Shown piece by piece: positions 1 through 16,335 of a stretch of DNA of 18,328 bases. The notes below the pieces were generated by a model. It was not told the DNA's origin. It saw only the letters and a list, made by a program, of their open reading frames with translations, and searched no databases. This DNA is from a bacterium (lineage in GTDB: Bacteria; UBA8248). Where the stretch lies: positions 1 to 18,328 of the forward strand of contig CBDBBI010000009.1 of the NCBI GenBank assembly GCA_965202625.1. The letters are read 5' to 3'. Position 1 is the stretch's first letter. Each line of letters begins with the position of its first letter. Made by a program: the position numbers and the translations under genes.

Positions 1-348
1 GTCTGGGCGGATCAGCGCAACCACTCCGAGAGCGAGGGCCAGCGACGCATGAACGCCCTCTCCGAGGGCGGCTCCCCCTGGCTGACGGACACCCTCTGGA
101 TGGGGGTGAACAAGGTGCGTTCGGGTGCCGCCGCCACCCTGGTGGGCACGCCCGAGATGGTGGCCGACGCACTCAGGGAATACGTCGCTCTGGGCGTTGG
201 GAACTTCATCCTCTCCGGCTGGCCGCATCTGGAGGAGGCGGAGATTTTCGGTCGTGAGGTCATGCCGCTGTTGAAGGACACCCGGCCCGCACGACTCGCC
301 TATGCGGACGGGGCGGGTGCGTCCCCCGCCCTTTCAACGAAAGGATGA
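1..348 (+). CDS. LLM-class flavin-dependent monooxygenase (SsuD/alkanesulfonate monooxygenase-like), 5'-truncated by the window edge
   Basis: Frame is open from base 1 (VWADQRNHSESEGQRRM...). The C-terminal motifs LWMGV..VRSGAAATLVGTPEMVADALREY..LG...FILSGWPHLEEAEIFGREVMPLL resemble the SsuD-type C-terminus. Confidence 0.85.
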   Translation, partial: VWADQRNHSESEGQRRMNALSEGGSPWLTDTLWMGVNKVRSGAAATLVGTPEMVADALREYVALGVGNFILSGWPHLEEAEIFGREVMPLLKDTRPARLAYADGAGASPALSTKG

Positions 349-351
349 ACG

Positions 352-1011
352 ATGGGCTACCGCGTTTTCGACAGCGAGGAGATGGATCACCAGCAAACCT
401 ATCGCCTGCTCATCGGCTCCGTCGTCCCCCGGCCCATCGCCTGGGTGAGCACGATGAGCGCGGCGGGTGTGCCCAATCTCGCCCCTTTCAGCTTCTTCAC
501 CATGGTCTCTCACTATCCGCCCATGGCGTCCATTTCCGTCGGCGAGCGCGAGAAGAAGCCCAAGGACACCGCGCGCAACATTATGGAGACGAGAGGCTAC
601 GTCATTCACACGGTGACGAACGGCTGGGAGGAGGCGATGAACCAGAGCGCGGGGAATTACGCTCCCGAGGAGAGCGAGTTTGAGGCCGTCGGCCTCGAAA
701 CCCTCCCCTCCGACCTGGTGGACGCCCCGCGCCTCAAGAACGCGCCCGTGGCGATGGAGTGCCGCTTCGAGCGGATGATTCCCTTCGGCGATGAATGGGT
801 GACGCACCTGATCATCGGAGAGGTACTCAGGTGGCACGTCCGGGAGGATTTGATGCGGGAGGGCAAATACATCGACCCGGCGAAACTCGGGCCGGTGGGC
901 AGGCTGGGCGGCCCGAGATACTGTCGGACGGGGGAGATTTTCGAGATGCGCCCTCCCTACGTCATGCCGGACAGGGCACACCCCAACGATCCCGCCCGGA
1001 ACGACGTCTAG
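352..1011 (+). CDS. Flavin reductase family protein (DIM6/NTAB-like, FMN-binding split barrel)
   Basis: Motifs LLIGSVVPRPIAWVST, NLAPFSFF, KPKDTARNI, ESEFEAVGL, PVAMECR and VGRLGGPRY are typical of this family. Starts 3 nt after the monooxygenase stop. Confidence 0.9.
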   Translation: MGYRVFDSEEMDHQQTYRLLIGSVVPRPIAWVSTMSAAGVPNLAPFSFFTMVSHYPPMASISVGEREKKPKDTARNIMETRGYVIHTVTNGWEEAMNQSAGNYAPEESEFEAVGLETLPSDLVDAPRLKNAPVAMECRFERMIPFGDEWVTHLIIGEVLRWHVREDLMREGKYIDPAKLGPVGRLGGPRYCRTGEIFEMRPPYVMPDRAHPNDPARNDV

Positions 1012-1156
1012 AGCTGCGGATGAGAGTCCCTGTGCAATTCGACTTTGCGGAAAAGGCGCATTCGCACCCGACAGCCTCTGGGCGAGGCGTCTGATGGGCG
1101 AGAACCCCACGCGGGCCGACGCGCCCGAGAATGCGCAAACACCGCAGAGGAGCGCC

Positions 1157-1807
1157 ATGAACGACGATCTGCTTCGGAAGATGGCGGCAGAAGATCTGGA
1201 TGCGGCACGCGTCGCGCGCGACCCGATCACACAGTTTCGCCGCTGGTACGCCCAGGCCCAAAGCGCGGGAATTCACCGCGAAGACGCGATGACGCTCGCC
1301 ACCGTCCAGCCGGACGGTGCTCCCGCCGCCCGGATCGTCCTGTATAAGGATCCGGAAACTCTGGGGGTCGATGCGCCGGGCTTTCTCTTTTTCACCAACT
1401 ACGAGAGCGACAAGGCCGCACACCTGGAGGGCGACCCCAGAGCCGCCCTCGTCTTTCACTGGAAAGAGGCGGGCCGGCAGGTGCGCGCCGAGGGCGTGAC
1501 CGAAAAACTGCCCGCCGAAATCTCGGACGCGTATTTCGCCTCCCGCCCGCGCGGCAGCCAGACAGGTGCGTGGGCCTCCCCCCAGAGCCGCGCGATACGC
1601 GACAGGGCGTTTCTTGAGCGAGGCGCGCGCGAGGCGGAGGAGAAATACGCGGGCCGCGCGGTACCGAGGCCGCCGGGCTGGGGCGGCTACCTCCTCACCC
1701 CCCGTTCGGTGGAGTTCTGGCGGCACAGGGACAGCCGCCTCCACGACCGCGTGCGCTACGCCCTGGAGACGGACGGCGGCTGGCGGATAGAGCGCCTCGC
1801 CCCGTGA
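1157..1807 (+). CDS. pdxH: Pyridoxine/pyridoxamine 5'-phosphate oxidase
   Basis: Motifs AMTLAT, ARIVLYK, FFTNYESDKA, RQVRAEG, YFASRPRGSQ.GAWASPQS, WGGY, VEFW..R.SRLHDR and W.IERLAP. ATG 1157 follows GAGGAG (1147-1152); the ORF track gives an alternative upstream ATG at 1094. Confidence 0.95.
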   Translation: MNDDLLRKMAAEDLDAARVARDPITQFRRWYAQAQSAGIHREDAMTLATVQPDGAPAARIVLYKDPETLGVDAPGFLFFTNYESDKAAHLEGDPRAALVFHWKEAGRQVRAEGVTEKLPAEISDAYFASRPRGSQTGAWASPQSRAIRDRAFLERGAREAEEKYAGRAVPRPPGWGGYLLTPRSVEFWRHRDSRLHDRVRYALETDGGWRIERLAP

Positions 1808-1877
1808 GGGACTATCCCTTTATGCGCTGCACCCTGCAGACAAAGAACAAAATCAAACATGCGGTATATCCGCGCAC

Positions 1878-1905
1878 TTGACAAACACTATATCTTTTGT
1901 AGTAG
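1878..1905 (+). promoter_or_regulatory. Possible sigma70-like promoter for cassette 1
   Basis: Perfect TTGACA at 1878-1883 in an AT-rich intergenic stretch. The -10 match (TAGTAG, 1900-1905, 16-nt spacing) is poor. Confidence 0.3.
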
Positions 1906-2016
1906 CCATGTGATTTCGCGGTGTAGTTTCGCTTTTGGGATTGCGCTCAAATCTTGAAAGACAAAGACGAGCAACGCCAACCTCAATCAGAAAATTGCTG
2001 GCCGGCGAGCGAAAAT

Positions 2017-2439
2017 ATGAACGGCACAGAGAAGGTCATCAAACACCTGGAAATGACCCAAGCCATTATCAACCGTTTGGGCAACAACTCCTTTCTCGTG
2101 AAAAATTGGAGCATGACTGTCATTGTCGCCGCCATAGTCTTGACTGCAAGGAGCGAGATGCTAAACCCGTTTATTGTTCTTCTCCTTATTCCACCCGTTA
2201 TAGGGTTCTGGTGGCTGGACGGATATTTTCTCTGGCAGGAAAGACTTTTCCGGCAAGTATATGACGAGATCAGGGTGCAATCCGATACAGATTTCAAGAT
2301 GGACGTGATGAAACATGGAAACAAACCGAAATGTAGTCGCTCATCCGCTATTTTCTCTCAAACTCTTTTCATTTTTTATTTGGTGGAGTTTTTCTTCATT
2401 TTTCTAGTGTTCGCAATAATTTATTGTGGAGGAGCATGA
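2017..2439 (+). CDS. Small membrane protein with about 3 TM segments, TIR-associated (putative defence effector)
   Basis: KHLEMTQAIINRLGNNSFLVKNWS...FWWLDGYFLWQERLFRQVYDEIR with three hydrophobic segments. AT-rich and directly upstream of the TIR gene. ATG 2017 preferred; the ORF extends to TTG 1954. Confidence 0.75.
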   Translation: MNGTEKVIKHLEMTQAIINRLGNNSFLVKNWSMTVIVAAIVLTARSEMLNPFIVLLLIPPVIGFWWLDGYFLWQERLFRQVYDEIRVQSDTDFKMDVMKHGNKPKCSRSSAIFSQTLFIFYLVEFFFIFLVFAIIYCGGA

Positions 2440-2467
2440 GAATATGGGTGAGATAAGGAAAACCGTC

Positions 2468-2965
2468 ATGCAAAAAAGACAAGTGTTCTACAGTTTTGAC
2501 TATAAGTCAGACAGTTGGCGTGTGGCCCAAGTGCGCAATATAGGCGTTCTTGAGGGAAACAAAACCATAACGGATAACGATTGGGAGGAAGTCAAAAAAG
2601 GCAGCAAAAACGCTATAAAACGATGGATTGACAAGCAAATGGAGTATAGATCTTGCACTGTTGTTTTGGTTGGAACAAATACCGCAGGTAGAGAATGGAT
2701 TGACTATGAAATAATACATTCATGGGAACAGGGTATGGGCGTCGTGGGTATCCATATTCATGGGTTAGAAGATAAGCAAGAATATCGTTCGGGAAAAGGG
2801 CGAAATCCTTTTGATTCTCTGTCTTTCCAAAACGGAAAGAAGTTATCTCATTTGGTCAAATGTTATGATCCAAGAGGAAGTAATAGCAAACAAGTATATG
2901 CCTGGATTTCAACGCATTTATCAAATGTAGTGGAAGAAGCAATCAAGATAAGGAAAACAAATTAA
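2468..2965 (+). CDS. TIR-domain protein, Thoeris ThsB-like (MTH538/DUF1863 type)
   Basis: KRQVFYSFDY..DSWRVAQVRN, DNDWEEVKK, IKRWIDKQM..RSCTVVLVG..TA.R.WIDYEI..SW..G.GVVGIHIHGL; the putative catalytic Glu in WIDYEI is intact. AAGGA at 2455-2459 precedes ATG 2468; the ORF track starts at 2426. Confidence 0.9.
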   Translation: MQKRQVFYSFDYKSDSWRVAQVRNIGVLEGNKTITDNDWEEVKKGSKNAIKRWIDKQMEYRSCTVVLVGTNTAGREWIDYEIIHSWEQGMGVVGIHIHGLEDKQEYRSGKGRNPFDSLSFQNGKKLSHLVKCYDPRGSNSKQVYAWISTHLSNVVEEAIKIRKTN

Positions 2966-3010
2966 GTGAACAAGCCAGCAAAACGTGACAGGGCTTGCGG
3001 TTCACAAACC

Positions 3011-3336
3011 TGCAAACCCCCCCTCAAACCTTCACGCCCCCGATGCCCCATGAGGTGTCCTTCGCCGTGACGAAGACGTAGTCCGCATCGCCCAGAATTT
3101 CGCAGGAATGCACCGCGTTCGCCGGAATGTGGGCGATGTCGCCCGGAGCGAGCGTCCCCGTCTCCTCGCCTATCTTCATGCGCGCGGCACCGAGGCCGCT
3201 CGGCTGGTGCGGCTACCTCCTCGTGCCCCGTTCTGTGGAGTTCTGGCGGCACAGGGACAGCCGCCTCCACGACCGCGTGCGCTACGCCCTGGAGACGGAC
3301 GGCGGCTGGCGGATAGAGCGCCTCGCCCCGTGAGGG
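3011..3336. repeat. Chimeric repeat copy 1: cupin 3' end (minus strand) fused to pdxH 3' end
   Basis: 3024-3192 matches 6775-6943 (cupin 3' end including its stop). 3181-3336 matches 1655-1810 (pdxH 3' end including its stop), and the last 102 bp are identical to 1709-1810. The two halves overlap at CGCGCGG(C/T)ACCG, 3181-3192. Confidence 0.95.
3181..3333 (+). pseudogene. pdxH: pdxH 3'-terminal fragment (about 50 codons)
   Basis: Translates ...[47 protein letters not shown], near-identical to the C-terminus of the intact pdxH; the 5' part of the gene is absent. Confidence 0.85.
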
Positions 3337-3441
3337 GGGGCGGCGCGGCTCATATCCGTATTGAATCCATGACGTGGGTGCCGTAAGCTGGGCGCGCCGC
3401 ATCAGCAGCGACGTCTGGGCACCGGAATGTGAGGTGATGAT

Positions 3442-4974
3442 TTGAGCGATTCGCCTGTGCAAGGCTCCGTCAAGCTCGATGTGAAAAATTTCGGACCCAT
3501 TGCCGATGCCAAAATTGATCTGCGTCCTTTGACCGTGTTCGTGGGACCAAGCAACACGGGCAAATCCTATCTGGCGATTCTGATATATGCCTTGCACCGG
3601 TTTTTCAGTCGTCATCTTGATGGCCTGGGTCTGCCTGGCTTCCGACACTTTCCATTAGGTTACGACCTATTTGTGGACGACGAGGAGAATCAACCCACCA
3701 AGGAAACTTTGGATGAGTTTCTCGACTGGGCGAAGCGGACGTTTGGGGACGAGGAAGCGTTGTCAAATGAGAAAAGCATTCTTATCCCCGATCCCATCGC
3801 AGGTTGGGTTCGTTCAGCGCTCACCAGTCTTGACGCGCGGGGCGGCGATCTCGGCGATGAAATCAGCAGGTGCTTCGGCGTTAACGAGGCAAAAGAATTG
3901 ATTCGGAAAGGGGGAAGTGCCCGGAACCCGCAGGTCGTTCTACGAAGGGGCGTCTCGGACGATGCCGATCCTTTCGTCCAAGAGCTGAGCATCCACGCGA
4001 AAAAGCCCGCGCTCAAGACGACGATTCCCGAAAATATGCCTATACGGCTCAAAACTGATGATCCGTCATTGAGTAAATTCGGCCACTCCTACCGCAGGAT
4101 GATGCCTATGCGGGATGAGGAGCAGGAATTAACGGCCCGGCGGCTGATAGCGAATTTAAGCGACTTCACTGCAAATCAGGTCTTTGGGCAGGTTTTTGGC
4201 CCCCTGCGTCTTCCGGCCTTCTATCTTCCCGCCGACCGTACAGGCGTCATGCACGCCCATCGCGTGGTCGTAAGCGCCTTGATCGAGCGCGCCACCAGGG
4301 CGGGTCTGCATCAGGATACCCCCATTCCCATGCTCTCGGGCGTTCTGGCGGACTTCCTCAAACAACTGATTGCGCTCGACAGTGGGCCGTCTGGGCGCGA
4401 ACCTCAAAACCCTCTCGACAAGGGAATCGAAAAATTCATCCTCGGCGGAGAAGTGAACGTCAAGAAAACGGAAACCGGCTACCCGCGCTTCACCTATCGG
4501 CCGGAGAAATGGGAGGCCGACCTTCCATTGATGAACGCCTCGTCCATGGTGGCGGAACTCGCGCCGGTGGTGCTGTATCTGCGCTACGTGGTGAGACCCG
4601 ACAACGTGCTGATCATTGAGGAACCAGAATCGCACCTGCATCCCGCCATGCAGGTCGAATTCACACGGCAAATCGCGGCGCTCGTCCGCGCGGGCGTTCG
4701 GGTGCTCCTCACGACGCACAGCGAGTGGGTACTGGAAGAACTCGCCAACATCGTGCAGTCATCGAACCTGCCTAAAGATGGCGACGTCGATCTACGACCT
4801 GATGATGTGGGTGTATGGCTATTTCAGCCAAAGAACCGCCCAAGGGGTTCGATCGTGAAGGAAATCCCCCTGGATGATTCGGGGCTTTTCCCGTCTGGTT
4901 TTGATGACGTCGCCGCCGCGCTCCACAATGACTGGGCCGATATTTCCAGCCAGATTGGAGAAGAAAGCGGGTGA
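3442..4974 (+). CDS. ABC-type/AAA ATPase (AAA_15/AAA_21-like, defence-associated)
   Basis: N-terminal VKNFGPI, Walker A GPSNTGKS, LPADRTG, degenerate signature NASSMVAEL, Walker B/D-loop LIIEEPESHLHP and H-loop LLTTHS. GAGGTG at 3431-3436 precedes the TTG start. Confidence 0.9.
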   Translation: MSDSPVQGSVKLDVKNFGPIADAKIDLRPLTVFVGPSNTGKSYLAILIYALHRFFSRHLDGLGLPGFRHFPLGYDLFVDDEENQPTKETLDEFLDWAKRTFGDEEALSNEKSILIPDPIAGWVRSALTSLDARGGDLGDEISRCFGVNEAKELIRKGGSARNPQVVLRRGVSDDADPFVQELSIHAKKPALKTTIPENMPIRLKTDDPSLSKFGHSYRRMMPMRDEEQELTARRLIANLSDFTANQVFGQVFGPLRLPAFYLPADRTGVMHAHRVVVSALIERATRAGLHQDTPIPMLSGVLADFLKQLIALDSGPSGREPQNPLDKGIEKFILGGEVNVKKTETGYPRFTYRPEKWEADLPLMNASSMVAELAPVVLYLRYVVRPDNVLIIEEPESHLHPAMQVEFTRQIAALVRAGVRVLLTTHSEWVLEELANIVQSSNLPKDGDVDLRPDDVGVWLFQPKNRPRGSIVKEIPLDDSGLFPSGFDDVAAALHNDWADISSQIGEESG

Positions 4975-5447
4975 AGGGCCTCGTGGATGCAGTTCGGGCA
5001 GAGGTTTCTCCGCAATGTCTTTCAAGGAATTGCCGCAGGGATGGTTGTGGCGTATCCCTTCAAGGTGCGCCGTCGCCACGCTTGATCATCGATTTTGACA
5101 AACCGGGCTCGCCCCTCGACAAGAATCAGAAACGTCCCGACTACCTGTTCATCGCCGAAAGCGGCAGCGATTCTTCATGGGTCGCGCCGCTGGAACTCAA
5201 GAAAGGTCGGTTGGACGTCAGCCAAGCCATTGCACAACTTCAAGCAGGGGCGCGCGCCGCCGAGGGGGTTGTTCCCGAAAATGCAGCGGTCAAGTTTCGT
5301 CCCGTCGTCGCCCATAAGGGCGTGAGAACATCGGAAATCAGGGCACAGAGGAAAAATGGAAGCGGAAAAATACGTTTCCGCGGGCGAAGTGAAGCCTTAC
5401 GATGGCTCAGATGCGGCTCTAAATTGACCGATAGACTGAGATCATAG
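4971..5447 (+). CDS. Small basic protein with a PD-(D/E)XK nuclease-like motif, partner of the ATPase
   Basis: KRPDYLFIAE...WVAPLELKKG...AIAQLQAG fits PD...ExK. The GTG start overlaps the ATPase stop (GTGA), suggesting translational coupling. Confidence 0.7.
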   Translation: MKGLVDAVRAEVSPQCLSRNCRRDGCGVSLQGAPSPRLIIDFDKPGSPLDKNQKRPDYLFIAESGSDSSWVAPLELKKGRLDVSQAIAQLQAGARAAEGVVPENAAVKFRPVVAHKGVRTSEIRAQRKNGSGKIRFRGRSEALRWLRCGSKLTDRLRS

Positions 5448-5484
5448 GGAAAATGAATCCGCCAACGAAAATCTGAGAGCGGAG

Positions 5485-5708
5485 TGCAAACCCCCCTCAA
5501 ACCTTCACGCCCCCGATGCCCCATGAGGTATCCTTCGCCGTGACGAAGACGTAGTCCGCATCGCCGAGAATTTCGCAGGAATGCACCGCGTTCGCCGGAA
5601 TGTGGGCGATGTCGCCCGGAGCGAGCGTCCCCGTCTCCTCGCCTATCTTCATGCGCGCGGCACCGAGGCCGCCGGGTTGGGGCGGCTACCTCCTCGTGTC
5701 CCGTTCGG
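5485..5708. repeat. Chimeric repeat copy 2: cupin 3' end fused to a truncated pdxH fragment
   Basis: 5497-5665 matches 6775-6943 and 5654-5708 matches 1655-1709. Has the same CGCGCGGCACCG junction as copy 1 and the same TGCAAACCCCCC(C)TCAAAC left edge. Confidence 0.95.
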
Positions 5709-5820
5709 GAGCCGCTGGGCTTGAACGTTACGATGGAGCGCGCCAAAGAGGTCAAGGTAGAGCGGGCATCAGAGGTGAGATAGAATAGGAATATGATTTT
5801 GCAATAAAGGAGATAGCATA

Positions 5821-6759
5821 TTGCCGATCTTTGATACCTTTTCGAGACGAAAACGCCGAGCCGAACAAACAGAAGCCGACGTGTATCAATACGATGATAT
5901 CCCCGAAAAACTGCGATTTCAGGTGTGTCGCATCTTCAGCAATTCAATCGGAGCTTACAGGGCATATGAGCAATTTGATCAGAATAATGCACTTTGGCAT
6001 AACATTGCTGAAACGGTGGCGCAGGAGTTAGGTCGGAGAACACTTGCTGATGGAAATGACCCGAAAGAGGATTGTCTCTATTTTTTGCAACAAGAGCAGA
6101 ATACCGACCATTGGCTGGACTTGGTGGAAATCTCAGCATTAGCTATCGACAAAATTTGCCGAGGCCCAAAATACGATGAATATTTTCGGGAGCGCAAGGG
6201 CATCACGCAAACAGCGGACGACGCAATACAAGAACTGAATTTTCGATTCAAAGAAGCAAGGCTTGGTTATCGGTATGAGAATGGTCAGATCATTCAGATT
6301 GACAACGACCTGCTCCATGCCGAAGTCACGAAACCCGCCCTTCAACTGTTATCCGATCCCCGCTTCAAGGGGGCGGAAGAAGAGTTCCGAGAAGCGCACG
6401 AGCATTACCGCGTTCACAAATATGAAGATTGCATTACGAACGCGCTCAAAGCGTTCGAGAGCACGCTGAAAACGATCTGCGACTTGAAAGAATGGGAATA
6501 CTCAAAAAAATCTACAGCTTCTAATTTACTAAAAATAGTTTTTAGAGAAAAATTAGTCCCCGACTATCTAGACAATTCGTTCACACAGTTAGCCGCAACG
6601 TTGCAGTCGGGCCTGCCAAAGGTGCGCAACGAAGCGGGCGGTCATGGACAAGGCACAGGTCTTCGAGAAACACCCGATTACATCGCCGCTTACGCCCTAC
6701 ACCTAGCCGCAGCCAAGATCGTGCTCTTGGTTCGTGCGATGCAAGCAACCGAAAAATAG
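5821..6759 (+). CDS. Abortive-infection-like protein: AbiJ-type N-terminal domain plus C-terminal HEPN/Abi_C-like domain (STM4504/CBY_0614-like)
   Basis: N-terminal IFDTFSRR...DVYQYDDIPEKLRFQV, central AIQELNFRFKEARLGYRYENGQII, and C-terminal GAEEEFREAHEHYR...ALKAFESTLKTIC...RNEAGGHGQG (R-x5-H). AAGGAG at 5807-5812; lower GC than the flanks. Confidence 0.8.
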   Translation: MPIFDTFSRRKRRAEQTEADVYQYDDIPEKLRFQVCRIFSNSIGAYRAYEQFDQNNALWHNIAETVAQELGRRTLADGNDPKEDCLYFLQQEQNTDHWLDLVEISALAIDKICRGPKYDEYFRERKGITQTADDAIQELNFRFKEARLGYRYENGQIIQIDNDLLHAEVTKPALQLLSDPRFKGAEEEFREAHEHYRVHKYEDCITNALKAFESTLKTICDLKEWEYSKKSTASNLLKIVFREKLVPDYLDNSFTQLAATLQSGLPKVRNEAGGHGQGTGLRETPDYIAAYALHLAAAKIVLLVRAMQATEK

Positions 6760-6774
6760 TGAGATCCTCCCCCC

Positions 6775-7515
6775 TCACGCCTTCACGCCCCCGATGCCCC
6801 ATGAGGTATCCTTCGCCGTGACGAAGACGTAGTCCGCATCGCCCAGAATTTCGCAGGAATGCACCGCGTTCGCCGGAATGTGGGCGATGTCGCCCAGGGC
6901 GAGCGTCCCCGTCTCCTCGCCTATATTCATGCGCGCGGCACCGCTCAGGACGATCGCAAATTGCTCGTTGGGGTGGGAGTGGGCCTCGGCGCGTCCTCCC
7001 GCGGGAATCCGCATCTTCCCAAAGATGACGCGCGCACCCGTCACCCACGCCCCCTCGGTCGGGCTGTAGGTCTCGCCCGCCAGCTCCTTGTCCATCGCCT
7101 CGGTGTCATAGAAATAGGGGATGCGCCCCGCACCCCCGCTTTCCCCGCGCCCGGCGGCACGCCCCATCTCGGCGGGCGTTCCCTCAATGCCCGCGGCCGT
7201 GTCCTTCGCCACGATGAACTCATAATCCGCATCGTCCAGCACCTCGGCCTCGTGCACGGCACCAGCGGGCCGGTAGGCGATGTGGCCGGGCGTGAGAACC
7301 CCGCTCTCGCCCTCCACGTTCAGGCGGACGCTTCCGGCGAGGCAGTAGCCGAACTGCTCGTTCGGGTGGGAGTGCGCGCTTGAGCGCGTGCCGGCGGGCA
7401 TCCGCATCTTGCCGAAAATGATCCGCTCCCCCCGCACCCACGCCCCCTCGGTCGGGCTGTATGCCGCCCCCGCAAGGTTCTTCTCCATCTCGCTCGTCCT
7501 GTAGAAACAAGGCAT
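6775..7515 (-). CDS. Bi-cupin protein (two tandem cupin domains)
   Basis: Two copies of YSPTEGAWV.G.R.IFGKMR.PAG.R..AHSHPNEQF...L.G and G.IA..PA.AVH (cupin motifs 1 and 2). ATG 7515 has an upstream GAGGGAG; the ORF track extends to 7644. Confidence 0.88.
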   Translation of the reverse strand: MPCFYRTSEMEKNLAGAAYSPTEGAWVRGERIIFGKMRMPAGTRSSAHSHPNEQFGYCLAGSVRLNVEGESGVLTPGHIAYRPAGAVHEAEVLDDADYEFIVAKDTAAGIEGTPAEMGRAAGRGESGGAGRIPYFYDTEAMDKELAGETYSPTEGAWVTGARVIFGKMRIPAGGRAEAHSHPNEQFAIVLSGAARMNIGEETGTLALGDIAHIPANAVHSCEILGDADYVFVTAKDTSWGIGGVKA

Positions 7516-7808
7516 CGCGCTCCCTCTCTTTCTTGAAAGATGGCGTCCACTCCGCGCCTGGCGCCATAATTTCCCGAAACCGCGCGGCGACAGAGGGACT
7601 ATCGCGCATCCGCGCGGGTCGGGCAAGTTTCGGGCGGTACCCAAGGGGTGCGGCGATGCGGGCGCATTGCATACCCCCTGTTTTCGCTATACATTCACAC
7701 CGCCTCTCTTATGACGTGAAACCAGGGATTCTTCATGGACGCCGGCGGGAAAGCCGTGTTCCCCGCGCGCGCGTCCAGCACACAGCGAACAGAAAAGGAG
7801 ACGACGCG

Positions 7809-8468
7809 ATGATGCGAACCAGCGACGAGATACCCTACAGCGAGCACAACGCGCGCCGAATGCGGCGGGCCTGGACGTGGCGCGAGCAGAGCAGGAAAGC
7901 CGGGTCGGACGAGGAGAAATTCCTTTTTCTGTGGATCGCCTTCAACGCGGCCTACGGCGATGAGCCGACGGGCAGATACGAAGACGCTCCCACCGAGAGC
8001 ATGAAGATCACCGAATTTCTACGGGAGATCATCAAGCGCGATGCGGGGGAAACGATAAGAACCATTCTCTGGGAGACGTATTCGGGGCCGATTCGCATTC
8101 TTCTGGAGAATCACTACGTCTTCAGGCCGTTCTGGCAATACGTGCGCGGCGAGCCTATGGGAGAGGGGTGGCGCAGGCGCTTCGAATCCAGAAAAGAGCG
8201 CACGAGAAGGTCCATCGGAACCGGAGACGTGCACGCCGTGTTCAGGGAAGTGTTCGGGCGGCTGTATCAACTGCGCAACCAGGTGTTCCACGGAGGCGTG
8301 ACTTTCGGCGAAGGATGGGGCCGGACCCAGCTCAGGGATGGTGCCCGCATCATGGAGAAAATCGTTCCGGCGATTCTCGACGTCATGCAGGCCGACATCG
8401 AGAAAAACCCCGACTCGGAGGTTTGGGGAAAAGTCGCCTATCCCCGAGTCGGCGAGAGTCCCTCTTAG
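7809..8468 (+). CDS. HEPN-domain protein (Apea-like)
   Basis: FLFLWIAFNAAYG and LYQLRNQVFHGG (R-x4-H HEPN motif). AAGGAG at 7795-7800 precedes ATG 7809/7812; the longer 7461 start overlaps the divergent cupin gene and is unlikely. Confidence 0.8.
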   Translation: MMRTSDEIPYSEHNARRMRRAWTWREQSRKAGSDEEKFLFLWIAFNAAYGDEPTGRYEDAPTESMKITEFLREIIKRDAGETIRTILWETYSGPIRILLENHYVFRPFWQYVRGEPMGEGWRRRFESRKERTRRSIGTGDVHAVFREVFGRLYQLRNQVFHGGVTFGEGWGRTQLRDGARIMEKIVPAILDVMQADIEKNPDSEVWGKVAYPRVGESPS

Positions 8469-8540
8469 GACGCCGGCGCATCACTCGCCGAAGACGATGC
8501 TTTGTCGTTGCGAAACAAACAACCAAAAAGGAGAAAAAAG

Positions 8541-10046
8541 GTGAAGAAACGCATGGGGACGTTTTCAGCAGTGCTTTTTCTGTTGCTCGCCCTTGCACCA
8601 TCCGCGCCCGCTCTGGCGGCGCAGGTCTCGTGCAAAGAGTGGAACACTCGGACGTTCTTCAAGCGCGCTTCGGCGGCGGACGTCTCCCGCTGTCTGAAGG
8701 CCGGAGCGAACGTGAACGCGCGGGACAAGGACAGATGGACGCCCTTGCACATGGCGGCGGGGTTCAATACGCCCGGTGGCGCGGCCGCGCTCATCAAGGC
8801 CGGAGCGGACGTGAACGCGCGGAACAAATGGGGATTGACGCCCCTGCACCTGGCGGCGGCACAGTTCAGCAAGACGCCCGGTGTCGTAGCAGTGCTCCTG
8901 AAGGCCGGAGCGGACGTGAACGCGCAGGACGAGAAGGGAAGGACGCCCCTGCACCTGGCGGCGCAGTTCAGCAAGACGCCCGGTGTCGTGGCAGCGCTCG
9001 TAAAGGCTGGAGCGGACGTGAACGCGCGGAACGAGGTCGGAGCGACGCCCCTGCACCTGGCGGCGGCATTCAGCGAAACGCCCGGTGTCGTAGCGACGCT
9101 ACTGAAGGCCGGAGCGGACCTGAACGCGCGAACCAAGGACGGAGCGACGCCCCTGCACCTGGCGGCGACGAAAAGCGAGACGCCCGGTGTCGTAGCGGCA
9201 CTCGCGAGAGCCGGAGCGGACCTGAACGCGCGGAGTGAGGACGGATGGACGCCCCTACACGCGGCGGCGGCGCAAAGCAAAACGCCCGGTGTCGTGGCGG
9301 CGCTCCTGAAGGCCGGAGCGGACGCGAACGCGCGGGGCAAGGACGGATGGACGCCCCTGCACGCGGCGGCGGTGTTCAGCAAGACGCCCGAAGTCGTGGG
9401 CGTGCTCCTGAAAGCCGGAGCGAACGTGAACGCGCGGGACGAGGACGGATGGACGCCCCTGCACGCGGCGGCGCAGAACAGCAAGACGCCCGGTGTCGTG
9501 GCGGCGCTCCTGAAGGCCGGAGCGGACGCGAACGCGCGGGGCAAGGACGGATGGACGCCCCTGCACTTGGCGGCGGAGAACAAGACGCCCGGTGTCGTGG
9601 CGACGCTCCTGAAGGCCGGAGCGGACCTGAACGCGCGGGACGAGGACGGATGGACGCCCCTGCACGCGGCGGCGCAGAACAGCAAGACGCCCGGTGTCGT
9701 AGCGGTGCTCGTAAAAGCCGGATCAGACCTGAATGCGCGGGACACTAAATACGGATGGACGTCTCTGCACTGGGCGGCGGCATTCAGCCAGACCCCCGAA
9801 GTCATGGCGACGCTCCTGAAGGCCGGAGCGGACGTGAACACGCGGGACGAGGACGGAGCGACGCCCCTGCACTGGGCGGCGGGGCTTAACAAAACGCCAG
9901 GTGTCGTGGAGGCCTTGCTGAAGGCCGGAGCGAACCCGGCGGCAAAAGACAAAGAAGGCAAAACGCCGTGGGATTACGCGAAAGAAAACGCCGCGCTCAA
10001 GGGAACGAAAGTCTATTGGCGACTGAACGAGGGGAGGTTCAAATAA
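8541..10046 (+). CDS. Secreted ankyrin-repeat protein ANK1 (signal peptide, Cys-pair N-cap, 12 repeats, C-cap)
   Basis: AAGGAG RBS and GTG start; (M)KKRMGTFSAVLFLLLALAPSAPALA-AQ signal; 12 NAR.x.GxTPLHxAA...TPGVVAxLLKAGAD repeats; GKTPWDYAKENAALKGTKVYWRLNEGRFK cap. Confidence 0.93.
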   Translation: MKKRMGTFSAVLFLLLALAPSAPALAAQVSCKEWNTRTFFKRASAADVSRCLKAGANVNARDKDRWTPLHMAAGFNTPGGAAALIKAGADVNARNKWGLTPLHLAAAQFSKTPGVVAVLLKAGADVNAQDEKGRTPLHLAAQFSKTPGVVAALVKAGADVNARNEVGATPLHLAAAFSETPGVVATLLKAGADLNARTKDGATPLHLAATKSETPGVVAALARAGADLNARSEDGWTPLHAAAAQSKTPGVVAALLKAGADANARGKDGWTPLHAAAVFSKTPEVVGVLLKAGANVNARDEDGWTPLHAAAQNSKTPGVVAALLKAGADANARGKDGWTPLHLAAENKTPGVVATLLKAGADLNARDEDGWTPLHAAAQNSKTPGVVAVLVKAGSDLNARDTKYGWTSLHWAAAFSQTPEVMATLLKAGADVNTRDEDGATPLHWAAGLNKTPGVVEALLKAGANPAAKDKEGKTPWDYAKENAALKGTKVYWRLNEGRFK

Positions 10047-10194
10047 AGCGAGCCTCGCAAGGAGGGCGCCGCAGACGCCTTTGCGAATGCGATTCCTCTC
10101 CCCCCCGCCCGGCGGTTTCATGGTGCTGGCGCATCGCCCGCGGGAGACGATGCTTTGTCGTTGCGAAACAACCAACCAAAAAGGAGCCAAAAAG

Positions 10195-12321
10195 ATGAAG
10201 AAACGCATGGGGACGTTTTCAGCAGTGCTTTTTCTGTGCCTCGCCCTTGCACCATTCGCGCCCGCTCTGGCGGCGCAGGTCTCGTGCAAAGAGTGGAACA
10301 CCTGGGTGTTCTTCAAGCGCGCCGGCGCGGCGAACGTTTCCCGCTGCCTGAAGGCCGGAGCAAACGTGAACGCACGGAATGAGTACGGAACAACGCCCCT
10401 GCACCAGGCGGCGGAGCACAGCAAGACGCCCGGTGTCGTAGCGACGCTCCTGAAAGCCGGAGCAGACGTGAACGCGCGGGGTCAGCTTAGAAAGACGCCC
10501 CTGCACACAGCGGCGCCCTGGAATACACCCGAAGTCGTGACGACGCTCCTGAAGGCCGGAGCGGACGTGAACGCGCGGAACGAGTTCAGATGGACGCCTC
10601 TGCACGCGGCGGCACAGTTCAGCAAGACGCCCGGTGTCGTGGCAGCGCTCGTAAAGGCTGGAGCGGACGTGAACGCGCGGGACAAGTACGGAACAACGCC
10701 CCTGCACATGGCGGCACAGTTCAGCGAGACGCCCGGTGTCGTGGCGGCTTTGCTGGATGCCGGAGCAAACCCGGCGTTAGAAGACAGAGAAGGCAAAACG
10801 CCGTGGGATCATGCGAAAAACAACGCCGCCCTTGAGGGGACGGACGTCTATGGGCGGCTGAAAGAGCGGTTCAATGTTCTGGCGGCGCGGATCTCATGCG
10901 AAAAATGGAACACTGGGCTGTTTTTCAGGCGCGCTACCGTGGCGGACGTTTCTCGTTGTATTGCGGCCGGAGCGGATGTGAACGCGCGGGTTAAGGGCTA
11001 TGGAACGACACCCCTGCACTGGGCGGCACAGTGGAACAAAACGCCCGGAGTCGTGGCGGCTCTCCTGGACGCCGGAGCGAGCGTGAGCGCGCGGACCAAG
11101 GACGGAATAACACCCCTGCACCTAGCAGCGACGCACAGCAAGACGCCCGGTGTCGTAGCAGTGCTCGTAAATTCCGGAGCGGACCTAAACGCGCGAGATA
11201 TTAAATACCGAACAACGCCCCTGCACGCGGCGGCGCGGCACAGCACGCCCGATGTCGTGGCGGCTCTCCTGAAGGCCAGGGCGGACGTGAACGCGCGGGG
11301 CAGGTCCGGATGGACGCCTCTGCACGCGGCGGCAGGGTTCAGCAAGACGCCCGAAGTTATAGACGCTCTCCTGAAGGCCGGAGCGGACGTGAACGCGCAG
11401 GACGAGAAGGGAGAGACGCCCCTGCATACGGCGGGGAGTTTTGGGTTCAGCAAAATGCCCGAAGTCGTGGCCGCGCTCGTAAAGGCTGGAGCGGACGTGA
11501 ACGCGCGGGACAAGAAGGGAGGGACGCCCCTGCACACGGCGGCACAGTGGAGCAAGACCCCCGAAGTCGTGGCGGCGCTCGTGAAGGGCGGGGCGAACGT
11601 GAACGCGCGGGACAAGAAGGGATTTACGCCCCTACACAGGGCGGCGATGTTCAGCGAGACGCCCGGTGTCGTAGCGGCACTCGCGAGAGCCGGAGCGGAC
11701 ATGAACGCGCGGACCGAGAACGGAGGGACGCCCCTGCACTACGCGGCGGCGAAGAGCAAGACACCCGGTATCGTAGCGGTGCTCCTGAAAGCCGGAGCGG
11801 ACGTGAACGCGCGGGCCGAGGACGGATTGACGCCCTTGCACGCGGCGGCGTTGAACAGCAAGACGCCCGGTGTCGTGGCCGCTTTGCTGGACGCCGGCGC
11901 AGATATGAACACGCGGGACGAGGACGGAGCGACGCCCCTGCACTACGCGGCGGCGAAGAGCAAGACACCCGGTATCGTAGCGGTGCTCCTGAAAGCCGGA
12001 GCGGACGTGAACGCGCGGGCCGAGGACGGATTGACGCCCTTGCACGCGGCGGCGTTGAACAGCAAGACGCCCGGTGTCGTGGCCGCGCTCGTAAAGGCCG
12101 GAGCGAAGCTGGACGCGCGGACCGACTTCGGATGGACGCCCCTGCACGTCGCGGCGGGGTTCAGCAAGACGCCCTCTGTCGTGAAGGCTTTGCTGGATGC
12201 CGGCGCTAATCTGGCGACAAAAAGCAAAGCAGGCAAAACGCCGTGGGATTACGCGCAAAAAAACGCCGCCCTCAAGGGAACGAAAGTCTATTGGCTGCTG
12301 AACGATGCGCGGTTCAAATAA
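10195..12321 (+). CDS. Secreted ankyrin-repeat protein ANK2, in-frame fusion of two units (4 + 12 repeats)
   Basis: Signal peptide, N-cap, 4 repeats, internal C-cap (GKTPWDHAKNNAALEGTDVYGRLKERF), second N-cap (ISCEKWNT...SRCIAAG), 12 repeats and terminal cap. Confidence 0.93.
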   Translation: MKKRMGTFSAVLFLCLALAPFAPALAAQVSCKEWNTWVFFKRAGAANVSRCLKAGANVNARNEYGTTPLHQAAEHSKTPGVVATLLKAGADVNARGQLRKTPLHTAAPWNTPEVVTTLLKAGADVNARNEFRWTPLHAAAQFSKTPGVVAALVKAGADVNARDKYGTTPLHMAAQFSETPGVVAALLDAGANPALEDREGKTPWDHAKNNAALEGTDVYGRLKERFNVLAARISCEKWNTGLFFRRATVADVSRCIAAGADVNARVKGYGTTPLHWAAQWNKTPGVVAALLDAGASVSARTKDGITPLHLAATHSKTPGVVAVLVNSGADLNARDIKYRTTPLHAAARHSTPDVVAALLKARADVNARGRSGWTPLHAAAGFSKTPEVIDALLKAGADVNAQDEKGETPLHTAGSFGFSKMPEVVAALVKAGADVNARDKKGGTPLHTAAQWSKTPEVVAALVKGGANVNARDKKGFTPLHRAAMFSETPGVVAALARAGADMNARTENGGTPLHYAAAKSKTPGIVAVLLKAGADVNARAEDGLTPLHAAALNSKTPGVVAALLDAGADMNTRDEDGATPLHYAAAKSKTPGIVAVLLKAGADVNARAEDGLTPLHAAALNSKTPGVVAALVKAGAKLDARTDFGWTPLHVAAGFSKTPSVVKALLDAGANLATKSKAGKTPWDYAQKNAALKGTKVYWLLNDARFK
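11727..12086 (+). repeat. Recent internal duplication in ANK2 (156 bp identical, 204-bp period)
   Basis: 11727-11882 is identical to 11931-12086 (TPLHYAAAKSKTPGIV...NARAEDGLTPLHAAALNSKTPGVVA). Confidence 0.85.
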
Positions 12322-12567
12322 AGGGCGCAGCGTAGCCGGACAAAAACATTGCATGGCCCTGGAAAAGCCGTTTTTCGGGGCGTGAAGGGCATTGCAAAAG
12401 CCGTTCAAAGCAGGGCGTCACGCGTGATGGAACCGCAGACGCCTTTGCAAATGCGATATTTCGCATTCTCTCCCATTCGTCGGGGTTTGGCTGGACCGGC
12501 GCATCGCCCGCCGAAGACGATGCTTTGTCGTTGCGAAAGAAACAAACAACCAAAAAGGAGCAAAAAG
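12322..12567 (+). repeat. Long-type intergenic repeat of the ankyrin array (also 16068-16335 and partial 16876-16995)
   Basis: AGGGCGCAG.GTAGCCGGACAAAAACATTGCATGGCC...AAAAGCCGTTCAA.GCAGGGCGTC follows ANK2, ANK6 and ANK7. A medium type follows ANK1 and ANK4 (10047-10194, 13836-13986) and a short type follows ANK3 and ANK5 (12976-13034, 14881-14939). Confidence 0.85.
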
Positions 12568-12975
12568 ATGAAGAAACGCATGGGGACGCCCCTGCACTTG
12601 GCGGCGGTGAAAAGCAAGACGCCCAGTGTCGTGGCAGCGCTCCTGAAAGCCGGAGCGGACGTGAATGCGCGGGACAAGTACGGAATAACACCCCTGCACC
12701 TAGCAGCGCGGTTCAGCAAGACGCCCGGTGTCATAGCGGCTCTCCTGAAGGCCGGAGCAGACGTGAACGCGCGGACCAAGAGGAAAGTGACGCCCCTGCA
12801 CATGGCAGCGTGGGGCGGCAAGACCCCTGAAGTCGTGGCGGTGCTCCTGAAAGCCGGCGCAAACCCGGCGGCAAAAGACCAAACAGGCAAAACGCCGTGG
12901 GATTACGCGAAAGAAAACGCCGCCCTCAAGGGAACAAAAGTCTATTGGCGGCTGAACGAGGGGCGGTTCAAATAA
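12568..12975 (+). CDS. Ankyrin-repeat protein ANK3 lacking signal peptide and N-cap (3 repeats plus C-cap)
   Basis: Same RBS and leader as its paralogs, then MKKRMGT joined directly to PLHLAAVKSK; frame intact to the shared C-cap. Confidence 0.85.
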   Translation: MKKRMGTPLHLAAVKSKTPSVVAALLKAGADVNARDKYGITPLHLAARFSKTPGVIAALLKAGADVNARTKRKVTPLHMAAWGGKTPEVVAVLLKAGANPAAKDQTGKTPWDYAKENAALKGTKVYWRLNEGRFK

Positions 12976-13034
12976 AGGGCGCCTTGAGACGATGCGATGG
13001 CGTTGAGAGCAAGCAACAAAAGAGGAGCAAAAAG

Positions 13035-13835
13035 ATGAAGAAACGCATGGGGACGTTTTCAGCAGTGCTTTTTCTGTTGCTCGCCCTTGCACCATCCGCG
13101 CCCGCTCTGGCGGCGCAGATCTCGTGCGGAGTATGGAACACTGAGGCGTTCTTCGAGCGCGCCTCGGAGGAGGACGTTTCCCGCTGTCTGAAGGCCGGAG
13201 CGGACCTGAACGCGCGGGATACTATGTACGGATGGACGCCCCTGCACCTGGCGGCGATGCACAGCAAGACGCCCGTTGTCGTGACCGCGCTCGTAAAGGC
13301 CGGAGCGGACGTGAACGCGCGGGACTTTGACGAAATGACGCCCCTGCACTACGCGGCGCGGTTCAGCAAGACGCCCGTTGTCGTGACCACGCTCGTAAAG
13401 GCCGGAGCGGACCTGAACGCGCGGAGTAATAGTCTATACGGAGAGACGCCCCTGCACCTGGCGGCGGAGTTCAGCGAGACGCTCGGTGTCGTGGAGGCAC
13501 TTCTGAAGGCCGGAGCGGACGTGAACGCGCGGAACGCGAAGGGATTGACGCCCCTGTACGCGGCGGTGGGGTCCAGCAAGACGCCCGGTGTCGTGGCCGC
13601 GCTCGTAAAGGCCGGAGCGGACGTGAACGCGGGGGATACTAAATACGGATGGACGTCCCTGCACTCGGCGGCGCAAAGCAAGACGCCCGGTGTCGTGGCG
13701 GCTTTGCTGGACGCCGGAGCGAACCCGGCGGCAGAAGACAATGCAGGCAACACGCCATGGGATTACGCGAAAGGAAACGCCGCCCTCAAGGGAACGAAAG
13801 TCTATTGGCGGCTGAACGAGGGGAGGTTCAAATAA
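13035..13835 (+). CDS. Secreted ankyrin-repeat protein ANK4 (5 repeats)
   Basis: GAGGAG RBS, signal peptide, ISCGVWNTEAFFERA N-cap, 5 repeats and C-cap. Confidence 0.92.
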   Translation: MKKRMGTFSAVLFLLLALAPSAPALAAQISCGVWNTEAFFERASEEDVSRCLKAGADLNARDTMYGWTPLHLAAMHSKTPVVVTALVKAGADVNARDFDEMTPLHYAARFSKTPVVVTTLVKAGADLNARSNSLYGETPLHLAAEFSETLGVVEALLKAGADVNARNAKGLTPLYAAVGSSKTPGVVAALVKAGADVNAGDTKYGWTSLHSAAQSKTPGVVAALLDAGANPAAEDNAGNTPWDYAKGNAALKGTKVYWRLNEGRFK

Positions 13836-13986
13836 AGCACGCCTCGCAAGGAGGGCACCGCAGACGTCTTTGCAAATCCGATATTTCGCATTCTCTCCCA
13901 TTCGTCGGGGGTTTTGAAGGGGCCGGCGCATCGCCGGGAATGAGGCGATGACCTTGAGAAGCAAACAAACAAAAAGGAGCAAAAAG

Positions 13987-14880
13987 ATGAGGAAACGCAT
14001 GGGGACGTTTTCGGCGGCGCTTTTTCTGTTGCTCGCCCTTGGGCCATCCGCGCCCGCTCTGGCAGCGCAGATCTCGTGCGGAGTATGGAACACTGAGGCG
14101 TTCTTCGAGCGCGCCGGCGCGGCGGACGTTTCCCGCTGTCTTGCGGCCGGAGCGAACGTGAACGCGCGGGGCCAGATTAGAGAGACGCCCCTGCACCTGG
14201 CGGCGGCGAAAAGCAAAACGCCCGAAGTCGTGACGACGCTCCTGAAGGCCGGCGCGAACGTGAACGCGCGGAACGAGTTCGGATGGACACCCCTGCACAC
14301 GGCGGCAAAGTGGAGCAAGACCCCCGAAGTCGTGACGACGCTCGTAAAAGACGGAGCGGACGTGAACGCGCGGAACGAGTTCAGATGGACACCCTTGCAC
14401 GCGGCGGCACAGTGGAGCAAGACCCCCGAAGTCGTGGCGGTGCTCGTGAAGGGCGGGGCGAACGTGAACGCGCGGAACGAGATCGGATGGACGCCCCTGC
14501 ACGCGGCGGCAGGGTTCAGCGAGACGCCCGGTGTCGCGGCAGTGCTCGTCAACGCCGGAGCGGACCTGAACGCGCGGGACGAATGGGGAGAGACGCCCCT
14601 GCACTACGCGGCGGCGCACAGCAAGACGCACGGAGTTATAGCGGCTCTCCTGAAAGCCGGAGCAGACGTGAACGCGCGGAACGAGAAGGGATGGACGCCC
14701 CTGCACACGGCGGCGGAGTTCAGCCAAACACCCGGTGTCGTAGCGGCTTTGCTGGACGCCGGAGGGGACCCGGCGGCAAAAGACAAAACAGGCAAAACGC
14801 CGTGGAATTACGCGAAAGAAAACGCCGCCCTCAAGGGAGGGGACGCCTATTGGCGGCTGAACGATGCGCGGTTCAAATAA
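13987..14880 (+). CDS. Secreted ankyrin-repeat protein ANK5 (6 repeats)
   Basis: AAGGAG RBS, MRKRMGTFSAALFLLLALGPSAPALA signal, N-cap start shared with ANK4, 6 repeats and C-cap. Confidence 0.92.
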   Translation: MRKRMGTFSAALFLLLALGPSAPALAAQISCGVWNTEAFFERAGAADVSRCLAAGANVNARGQIRETPLHLAAAKSKTPEVVTTLLKAGANVNARNEFGWTPLHTAAKWSKTPEVVTTLVKDGADVNARNEFRWTPLHAAAQWSKTPEVVAVLVKGGANVNARNEIGWTPLHAAAGFSETPGVAAVLVNAGADLNARDEWGETPLHYAAAHSKTHGVIAALLKAGADVNARNEKGWTPLHTAAEFSQTPGVVAALLDAGGDPAAKDKTGKTPWNYAKENAALKGGDAYWRLNDARFK

Positions 14881-14939
14881 AGCGCTCCTTGAGGCGATGC
14901 GATGACGTTAAGAACAAACAACCAAGGAGGAGCAAAAAA

Positions 14940-16067: not shown

Positions 16068-16335
16068 AGGGCGCAGTGTAGCCGGACAAAAACATTGCAT
16101 GGCCTGGAAAAGCCGTTTTTCGGGGCGTGAACGGCTTGTGAAACGGCCTTGAAAGGGCGTTGCAAAAGCCGTTCAAAGCAGGGCGTCACGCGTGATGGAA
16201 CCGCAGACGCCTTTGCGAATGCGATATTTCGCATCCTCTCTCCCGTTCGGCGGGGTGTTTGGATAGCGCCGGCGCATCGCCCGCCGGAGGCGAGGCGATG
16301 ACGTGAAGAGCAAGCAACAAAAGAGGAGCAAAAAG

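Follow-up and report, generated by a model that had tools for sequence, protein, structure and literature searches.

Three unrelated defence cargoes are stacked between two intact, convergent housekeeping genes, pdxH and a bicupin gene, in contig CBDBBI010000009.1 of assembly GCA_965202625.1, and chimeric scars composed of the 3′ ends of both flanking genes lie between them. The stretch analysed, called the window, is this complete contig of 18,328 nt (C9), one of the 10 contigs of a 3.09 Mb genome (G000) from a sponge-associated bacterium, an uncultured symbiont. What is new is the stacking of complete, unrelated defence systems between two intact housekeeping genes with chimeric flank scars; no description of scars of this kind in defence hotspots was found in the portions of the literature on defence islands, hotspots and illegitimate recombination that were searched. 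We propose, with a probability of roughly 0.6, that the stacking took place by one illegitimate joint at a microhomology combined with a homologous crossover, in a manner resembling homology-facilitated illegitimate recombination (HFIR), and that the resulting repeats then permit gain and loss of units.

Chimeric junctions between the stacked cargoes

The elements of the array, with their strand where one applies and the Pfam and PADLOC matches that identify them, are the following:

1094-1807 (+): pdxH (pyridoxamine 5′-phosphate oxidase), intact left flank; Pfam PNPOx_N 2.6e-26, PNP_phzG_C 1.2e-18
1655/1667-1810 (+): left homology arm, the last 144-156 nt of pdxH; repeat family D19
1655-1666 (+): microhomology in pdxH, CGCGCGGTACCG; its partner in the cupin gene, CGCGCGGCACCG, lies at 6932-6943
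1954-2439 (+): cargo 1a, small membrane protein, PDC-M50A-like; PADLOC PDC-M50A 4.6e-36, no Pfam family; G+C content (GC) about 0.42-0.47
2426-2965 (+): cargo 1b, ThsB-type TIR protein (PDC-M50B/ThsB); Pfam ThsB_TIR 1e-26, PADLOC ThsB 6.1e-70, PDC-M50B 2.2e-62
3018-3336: junction J1 as a whole, about 319 nt, cupin 3′ end then pdxH 3′ end
3018-3192 (-): J1 cupin 3′-end fragment, 175 nt; last 54 codons plus the stop at 3024-3026
3193-3336 (+): J1 pdxH 3′-end fragment, 144 nt; stop at 3331-3333
3442-4974 (+): cargo 2a, AAA_15/AAA_21 ATPase, PD-T4-4_A-like; Pfam AAA_15 8.5e-23, PADLOC PD-T4-4_A 5.8e-35
4971-5447 (+): cargo 2b, 158-aa partner, candidate PD-(D/E)xK nuclease; overlaps the ATPase gene, no Pfam or PADLOC match
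5491-5708: junction J2 as a whole, about 218 nt, cupin 3′ end then truncated pdxH
5491-5665 (-): J2 cupin 3′-end fragment, 175 nt
5666-5708 (+): J2 truncated pdxH fragment, 43 nt; 38/43 identical to pdxH, 37/43 to J1
5708-5783 (+): J2 degenerate higA remnant; 24 nt from the 5′ region of higA, fused to its final ~36 nt and stop
5821-6759 (+): cargo 3, AbiJ-type HEPN protein; Pfam AbiJ_NTD4 5.5e-23, DUF7014 1.1e-35, PADLOC PDC-S32 1.4e-13
6769-6943 (read on the + strand): right homology arm, the last 175 nt of the bicupin gene; repeat family D16
6775-7515 (-): right flank, the intact bicupin gene; Pfam Cupin_2 in two stretches, 1.8e-28

pdxH and the bicupin gene converge on the three cargoes, and the order and cargo identities proposed in the first-pass annotation of this DNA (pdxH, membrane plus TIR protein, ATPase pair, AbiJ, reversed cupin gene) agree with the Pfam and PADLOC results. 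A repeat search recovered three copies of the cupin 3′ end (family D16: 3015-3233, 5488-5706 and 6766-6984) and two of the pdxH 3′ end (family D19: 1655-1810 and 3181-3336). At 144-175 nt and 95-99% identity, these repeats lie far beyond chance. The chimeric repeats had been put at about 325 and 225 bp, close to the lengths measured here for J1 and J2. The homology ends exactly at the pdxH and cupin stop codons, and the "cassette" is therefore everything between them.

Each cupin fragment matches the intact cupin end at 169/175 positions, and the two agree with each other at 173/175; in tblastn, the J1 copy aligns to residues 192-245 at 96%. The J1 pdxH fragment agrees with pdxH 1667-1810 at 137/144 positions, all seven differences falling within the first 60 nt, and it encodes WCGY where the window pdxH and all 21 related pdxH genes examined encode WGGY. 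The higA remnant of J2 was found by blastn against higA of seven related loci, its translation being EPLGLNVT/MERAKEVKVER.. up to a stop. None of these chimeric gene fragments is a functional gene.

J1 and J2 are joined at one identical position, ...GCGCGCGGCACCG/AGGCCGC..., and both breakpoints lie on the 12-nt pdxH/cupin microhomology CGCGCGG(C/T)ACCG; when the last 400 nt of pdxH are compared with those of the cupin gene, no other 12-mer agrees with one mismatch or fewer. The order of the scar, right-flank end followed by left-flank end, is the permuted order that would be expected if two copies of the locus had undergone an unequal or illegitimate crossover. The first-pass annotation, in which the repeats would serve for adding, swapping or excising cassettes by host homologous recombination, is refined in one respect: the junctions themselves are illegitimate joins at a microhomology and not products of homologous recombination.

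The similarity of J1 and J2 bears on an alternative in which the segment from the pdxH 3′ end through the cargo to the cupin 3′ end was duplicated in situ at the microhomology, expanded to three units by unequal crossing-over, and had its cargoes replaced by allelic exchange. A scar of this form is the classic joint of a tandem duplication; the shared breakpoint, the near-identical cupin parts and an ACC>GTG triplet common to J1 and J2 and absent from both intact pdxH alleles would all follow from it. However, between J1 and J2 there are differences at 2/175 positions of the cupin part versus 6/43 of the pdxH part (Fisher p=0.0009), a mosaic from which it follows that they are not plain copies of each other, and the higA remnant occurs in J2 and not in J1. 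Under this scheme, a duplication would also have to be followed by amplification and by two or more separate replacements of cargo, and identical multi-kb repeats would be unstable in the interim. We consider it rather unlikely, a further point against it being given by the second scar described below. The J copies of G000 carry alleles absent from both intact genes, and a foreign arm type is only partly shown there. The T/V position of pdxH was also considered as an ancestry marker and is uninformative, the relatives having mostly K there.

A 20-nt exact scan for the junction in metagenome contigs (48 loci) and genome contigs (41 loci) gave chance matches only, the pattern being too short and GC-rich; 0/89 of these loci showed further similarity to window 1000-7700.

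The array in independent assemblies

The stacked array and its chimeric junctions are confirmed as real. An assembler could have concatenated strain alleles of one locus into an array present in no cell, and several facts would lend themselves to this at the expense of our reading. The 18-kb window is itself an alternative haplotig, the bin to which it belongs has 4.69% contamination, and at least 7/9 small contigs of the genome duplicate parts of its large contig C10, as haplotigs of it. When Logan contigs of four sequencing runs (contigs, not raw reads) were aligned with window 1-8400, no contig among those listed bridged J1 or J2 with 31 nt on both sides; the best J2-bridging contig, record 29 of run X6 (covering 5643-6773), has only 23 nt to the left of the join. 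That same 1131-nt record nevertheless runs with 0 mismatches through the J2-type cupin end, the join, the pdxH piece, the higA remnant, AbiJ and the cupin stop, and all 30 bins are covered in runs X3 and X6. The partners of the scar have in common no more than 12 nt, one of them mismatched, which does not suffice for a link in an assembly graph, and J1 is present in two independently assembled, 3%-diverged copies, in C9 and C10. The architecture recurs, with other breakpoints, in the genome G018, which comes from another assembly. An assembly artefact is thus very unlikely.

Variation in unit number between strains

C9 is an alternative haplotype of C10:2490606-2473814. The first 1500 nt of C9 are 100% identical to C10, and divergence starts inside the pdxH 3′ end; over the cargoes the identity is 68-100% per 100-nt window, and at the protein level it is 92.5% for the membrane protein, 78% for the TIR protein, 88% for the ATPase and 92% for the 158-aa protein. 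C10 has the order pdxH, membrane plus TIR pair, J1 (97% identical), ATPase plus 158-aa protein, cupin gene. It lacks exactly the 1278-nt AbiJ unit, consisting of the pdxH piece, higA remnant, AbiJ and cupin 3′ end, and its flanking alignments overlap on its single 175-nt cupin end. Since the two-unit array occurs with J1 in two alleles several percent apart, the scar is not a fleeting intermediate. Descent of C10 from C9 by direct deletion was rejected: the single-nucleotide polymorphisms in the 175-nt repeat and beyond do not form a hybrid with J2 on the left and the C9 cupin gene on the right.

A third form is seen in run X1, from another study, in which a 908-nt contig joins position 1808 to 3360, leading from pdxH directly into the ATPase leader without the membrane plus TIR pair and without J1. 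Run X1 has no cover over 5601-6720; neither uncovered parts in X1 and X2 nor an extra G behind 5666 in one contig of X2 were used as evidence. One-, two- and three-unit forms thus co-exist in sponge-associated populations. These haplotypes support in part the view of the first-pass annotation that whole cassettes bounded by the repeats are added or lost, C10 being without the AbiJ unit and X1 without unit 1. The unit-sized haplotypes (one, two and three cassettes) would fit repeat-mediated gain and loss, and the repeats may still recombine at present.

It should be mentioned that pdxH of C10 has one C fewer in a C-run (about 2488905-2488960; the counterpart of window 1700-1710), which splits the frame at about residue 203. 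This may reflect a real pseudogene or a homopolymer assembly error.

Two other small alternative haplotigs of G000 also carry strain-variable defence loci. C6 (L123:1560-6543) has Cas12c (PADLOC E=0, full length) and Cas1, and C7 (L124:3211-9896) has a complete type I restriction-modification system.

A second scar in the genus

In G018 (locus L027), the order is pdxH, higA, AbiJ, a reversed 103-nt cupin 3′ end joined to a 104-nt higA 3′ end, a 334-aa gene on the minus strand, and the reversed cupin gene. The join lies on TTCGCC(T/G)G. The left partner here is higA, the left neighbour in that clade, and the breakpoints differ from those of G000; it is therefore an event of the same kind but a separate one. 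The cupin fragment shares 93% identity with the gene of G017 vs 86% with the G018 gene itself, and the higA fragment is 91-94% identical to those of G011 and G021 vs 84% to its own. Both arms are nearer to alleles of other species than to the genes of their own genome and therefore came with foreign DNA. These foreign-type arms argue for import over duplication in situ.

With the two scars taken together, a join at a short microhomology of unrelated sequences, which characterises HFIR, is found in both G000 (12 nt, one mismatch) and G018; a foreign-type insert with a flank fragment is found in G018 and in part in G000.

A genus-wide pdxH/cupin hotspot

Full-length orthologues of the bicupin protein occur in 20/22 genomes of the same genus, at 72-81% identity; that of G008 is half-length and G004 has a paralogue match only. 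Convergent pdxH and cupin neighbours were found in 21/21 same-genus loci examined (20 fetched plus G008, with G004 left out), and the two genes are not adjacent in 4/4 loci from other genera of the family. Among the 21 loci, the interval between them extends from 70 nt in the empty G015 to 2954 nt. Its GC is 0.45-0.56 vs 0.62-0.70 in the flanks in most loci; within the window, the cargoes have 0.39-0.60 vs 0.64-0.72 in the flanks. The occupants are the following:

Empty interval: G015 (70 nt), G009 (207 nt)
HigB/HigA only: G022, G013, G021
Homologues of the ATPase and 158-aa pair: G003, G016, G002, G010, G011, G017; three of them also with higA or higBA
HTH protein and retron-type reverse transcriptase RT_VI (1e-93): G001, G006; DctP also in G001
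AriAB-like (PARIS-like) ATPase (7.6e-30): G020
PDC-S34/HAD-like protein: G014 (2.4e-124), G005 (Pfam only)
Shedu SduA (2.3e-154): G019
SEC-C-motif protein: G012
366-aa gene of unknown function: G007
DctP and HigBA: G008
higA, AbiJ and a 334-aa gene of unknown function: G018

Recognised or candidate defence cargo (RT_VI, SduA, AriAB-like, PDC-S34, AbiJ/PDC-S32, ATPase plus 158-aa protein) is present in 13/21 loci. A TRAP-type solute-binding protein, DctP, lies in the slot of two species (L011:14844-16025 in G001 and L118:13903-14946 in G008; 2e-18 and 2e-19), and the hotspot therefore also takes non-defence cargo. The hotspot is defence-rich and not purely defensive, with DctP, HigBA alone and unknown genes also present. 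By the working definition, the pdxH/cupin interval qualifies as a core defence hotspot, one without mobility genes. The description of pdxH/cupin as a defence hotspot, given in the first-pass annotation, can thus be kept with respect to synteny and to its richness in defence cargo, and not as a solely defensive locus. A comparison of the interval in related genomes had also been suggested there; carried out on the 21 loci, it shows that the locus is not invariant and that contents and length vary widely.

The three cargoes of the window had been taken to be alternative occupants of one slot, stacked in tandem. This stands, because the ATPase pair is the sole or main occupant in six other species, AbiJ occupies the slot in G018, and X1 runs from pdxH directly into the ATPase.

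The three cargoes

Defence models in PADLOC match all three cargoes, that for cargo 2 partially. Cargo 1 is a pair of PDC-M50A and PDC-M50B/ThsB with both components matched. No ThsA was found next to it, and it is therefore not a canonical Thoeris system. In X3 and X6, contigs covering the TIR gene run on, at window 2215 and 2955, into unrelated AT-richer sequence, which suggests a related membrane plus TIR system in another genomic context or in another organism of the same samples.

The PD-T4-4_A match of the cargo 2 ATPase is in two stretches, the better one being residues 333-439, and the 158-aa partner has no PADLOC counterpart. This small protein follows the ATPase in 6/6 species having the pair (orthologues 55-61% identical for the ATPase, 53-59% for the 158-aa protein), and has the invariant residues D41, D43, D57, E75 and K77. 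A Foldseek search with its AlphaFold2 model (pLDDT 78) gave no match at E<=0.001, the weak matches being mostly restriction-type nucleases, and a protein atlas returned unnamed clusters only. A PD-ExK assignment had been made for it at the outset; the invariant D..ExK residues and weak fold matches agree with that label, which no Pfam or PADLOC family backs, and we treat it as a lead to a possible nuclease.

Cargo 3 carries the AbiJ N-terminal domain and a C-terminal HEPN-type domain, by which AbiJ is recognised; its match to the Pfam HEPN family (0.0011) is below the family cut-off. It shares 66% identity with the AbiJ protein that G018 has in this slot. Scans for promoters and terminators did not rise above the level of shuffled sequence (3 found vs 3.4 expected, and 5 vs 6.9, respectively).

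Absence of mobility machinery

No recombinase, integrase or transposase Pfam family was found in the 20 window ORFs (open reading frames) scanned, and the window has 0 tRNAs and 0 Rfam matches. An inverted-repeat scan of 1780-7000 gave four short pairs, none at a shared cassette border, and no attC-like palindrome. In the occupied sites of relatives, no integrase or transposase is present among the interval ORFs scanned. The absence of integrase, transposase, tRNA and attC-like site noted at first inspection was thereby upheld by domain, tRNA, Rfam and palindrome scans.

Islands that integrate into gene ends are known to accrete in tandem. The cargoes could be integrase-less islands of the cis-mobilizable element (CIME) type, accreted at an att site within the cupin or pdxH 3′ end, with a site-specific recombinase, encoded elsewhere, acting in trans; direct repeats of a gene 3′ end do bound each cargo, as in islands that restore gene ends. 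However, no integrase was found in the 18-kb window, and the repeats, 144-175 nt long, stop where two different genes are joined into a chimera and share no core there. The junction of G018 involves other genes and positions, the borders of the cargoes fall on the core-gene stop codons, and no att-like duplication was found at the empty sites of G015 and G009. We regard this origin as very unlikely.

The locus is not an integron. It resembles one in being a one-directional row of promoter-proximal, unrelated small cargoes with a recurring boundary element, and differs in having no IntI, attI or attC hairpins, in a boundary made of host gene ends, and in that the enzymes inferred here are the general recombination functions of the host. 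The term "integron-like" used for it in the first-pass annotation holds as an analogy only.

Proposed mechanism of stacking

In the mechanism that we propose, the slot between the pdxH and cupin stop codons would normally hold one horizontally acquired cargo, usually of defence, and three such alleles would have been stacked here. DNA of a related strain with another cargo in the same slot would have recombined homologously in the body of pdxH or of the cupin gene, and the other side would have been joined illegitimately at the microhomology between the far flank of the donor and the near flank of the recipient; single-crossover insertion of a circularised fragment would give the same product. 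The one-step product would be intact pdxH, donor cargo, scar, resident cargo and intact cupin gene, that is, both core genes whole with the permuted cupin-3′/pdxH-3′ scar between old and new cargo, as seen in the window. HFIR with one homologous anchor has been proposed for arrays of T6SS (type VI secretion system) immunity genes and for Rhs orphan strings (PMC5361080, in the sections available), and duplication of homologous ends by a single crossover of circularised DNA has been reported (PMC3240628, likewise).

The resident would probably be the ATPase pair, because the genus has it in this slot more often than any other cargo, the G002 leader is similar to its own, and X1 has it directly after pdxH. 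The membrane plus TIR pair would have been added on the pdxH side, giving J1, and higA-AbiJ on the cupin side, giving J2, either by a second join or from a donor already bearing a scar. The higA remnant in J2 is like the higA-AbiJ arrangement of G018. For the shared breakpoint, either the best microhomology was used twice, or a scar-carrying donor recombined through the cupin part; the latter route is what the first-pass annotation meant by homology arms. The 144-175-nt direct repeats could then act as arms for RecA-type gain, loss and exchange of whole units.

A number of observations weigh against this proposal. Scars are found in only 2/22 species (G000 and G018), and stacking without a scar is seen for HigBA with the ATPase pair in G010 and G017 and for higA with the pair in G011. 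A 12-mer with at most one mismatch is present in 176/300 shuffles of the gene ends; the microhomology itself is therefore unremarkable and only the position of the breakpoint on it counts. The J1 and J2 breakpoints are identical, and two independent joins would require recurrence at one microhomology, which a single origin followed by amplification or scar spread explains more simply. Over the locus, C9 and C10 lie 5-7% apart, which rules out direct descent of either one from the other. Entry of the DNA by uptake is only a possibility: the genome encodes ComEC and DprA, but so do 10-11/14 control genomes.

Comparison with known systems

The descriptions of cDHS1 and cDHS2 of P. aeruginosa (PMC10250203) and of hotspot #37 of E. 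coli (PMC10121019), in the parts consulted here, share with pdxH/cupin the conserved core flanks around variable, defence-rich content and the many occupied sites without a detectable mobile gene. It has been proposed for them that cargo is exchanged through homologous recombination within those flanks, and the same sources leave the building and exchange of defence islands free of mobility genes as an open question. The pdxH/cupin slot differs in being tiny (0-3 kb per cargo), in lying between two stop codons, and in having scars, permuted fragments of both flanks, that attest an illegitimate join and mark each stacking.

A second likeness is to the V. cholerae T6SS immunity arrays and the strings of Rhs and contact-dependent inhibition (CDI) genes, where, in the available part of the source, modules are added sequentially and old modules and displaced 3′ ends are kept; the comparison with integrons is also made there (PMC5361080). 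There, a newly arriving module takes the place of part of a functional gene, and what is orphaned is a partial system, either immunity genes or toxin tips. Here the flanking genes remain intact, every unit comprises a whole defence system, and the scar combines sequence of the two flanks in one chimera.

Tandem duplications with short junctions are the third point of comparison. In such bacterial duplications and amplifications, the repeats expand or contract by homologous recombination. The array resembles them in the join at a microhomology of ~12 nt and in the permuted b/a order, and differs in having a different cargo in each unit and arms of differing allele origin.

The locus offers direct sequence evidence of a way in which a defence island free of mobile genetic elements (MGE) can grow by the recombination of the cell itself, without a mobile-element enzyme. 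It keeps the footprints of that growth in microhomology-joined flank fragments, foreign-type arms and co-existing one-, two- and three-unit strains, and also shows immune diversity at the strain level in a sponge symbiont population. The signature is searchable, being a right-flank end followed by a left-flank end inside a hotspot, and allows a cross-genome test of combined illegitimate and homologous recombination. It is conceivable, though doubtful, that permuted chimeras of flank genes are a general, self-propagating module boundary: because the scar carries both arms, alleles could be added, swapped and looped out by homologous recombination. A single-slot hotspot would then become an expandable cassette array without a recombinase of its own, and this would rank among the main routes to the assembly of MGE-free defence islands. 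Such scars would then be expected in numerous phyla and at a large number of core hotspots, and would make it possible to date the acquisitions and put them in order.

Other genes of the window

The remaining features of the window are as follows:

1-348: end of a luciferase-type monooxygenase gene
352-1011: flavin reductase gene
7809-8468: conserved 219-aa gene, without a Pfam or PADLOC family
8502-16875: run of at least seven ankyrin-repeat genes, downstream of the 219-aa gene

The 219-aa gene adjoins the bicupin gene in the window and in at least nine related species, at 44-63% identity. The ankyrin genes consist of repeated units of 102 nt (34 codons), each repeat family having 36-53 copies. 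The length of the ankyrin array differs between C9 and C10, with C9 8992-12995 having no collinear counterpart at >=88% identity. A conserved 83-nt leader precedes ankyrin genes at 8444-8526, 10097-10179, 12467-12549 and 16240-16322, and ends in a ribosome-binding site of the AAAAAGGAG type. Behind ankyrin genes, a 53-nt repeat is found at 12358, 16103 and 16911, with an inverted pair at 16128/16936.

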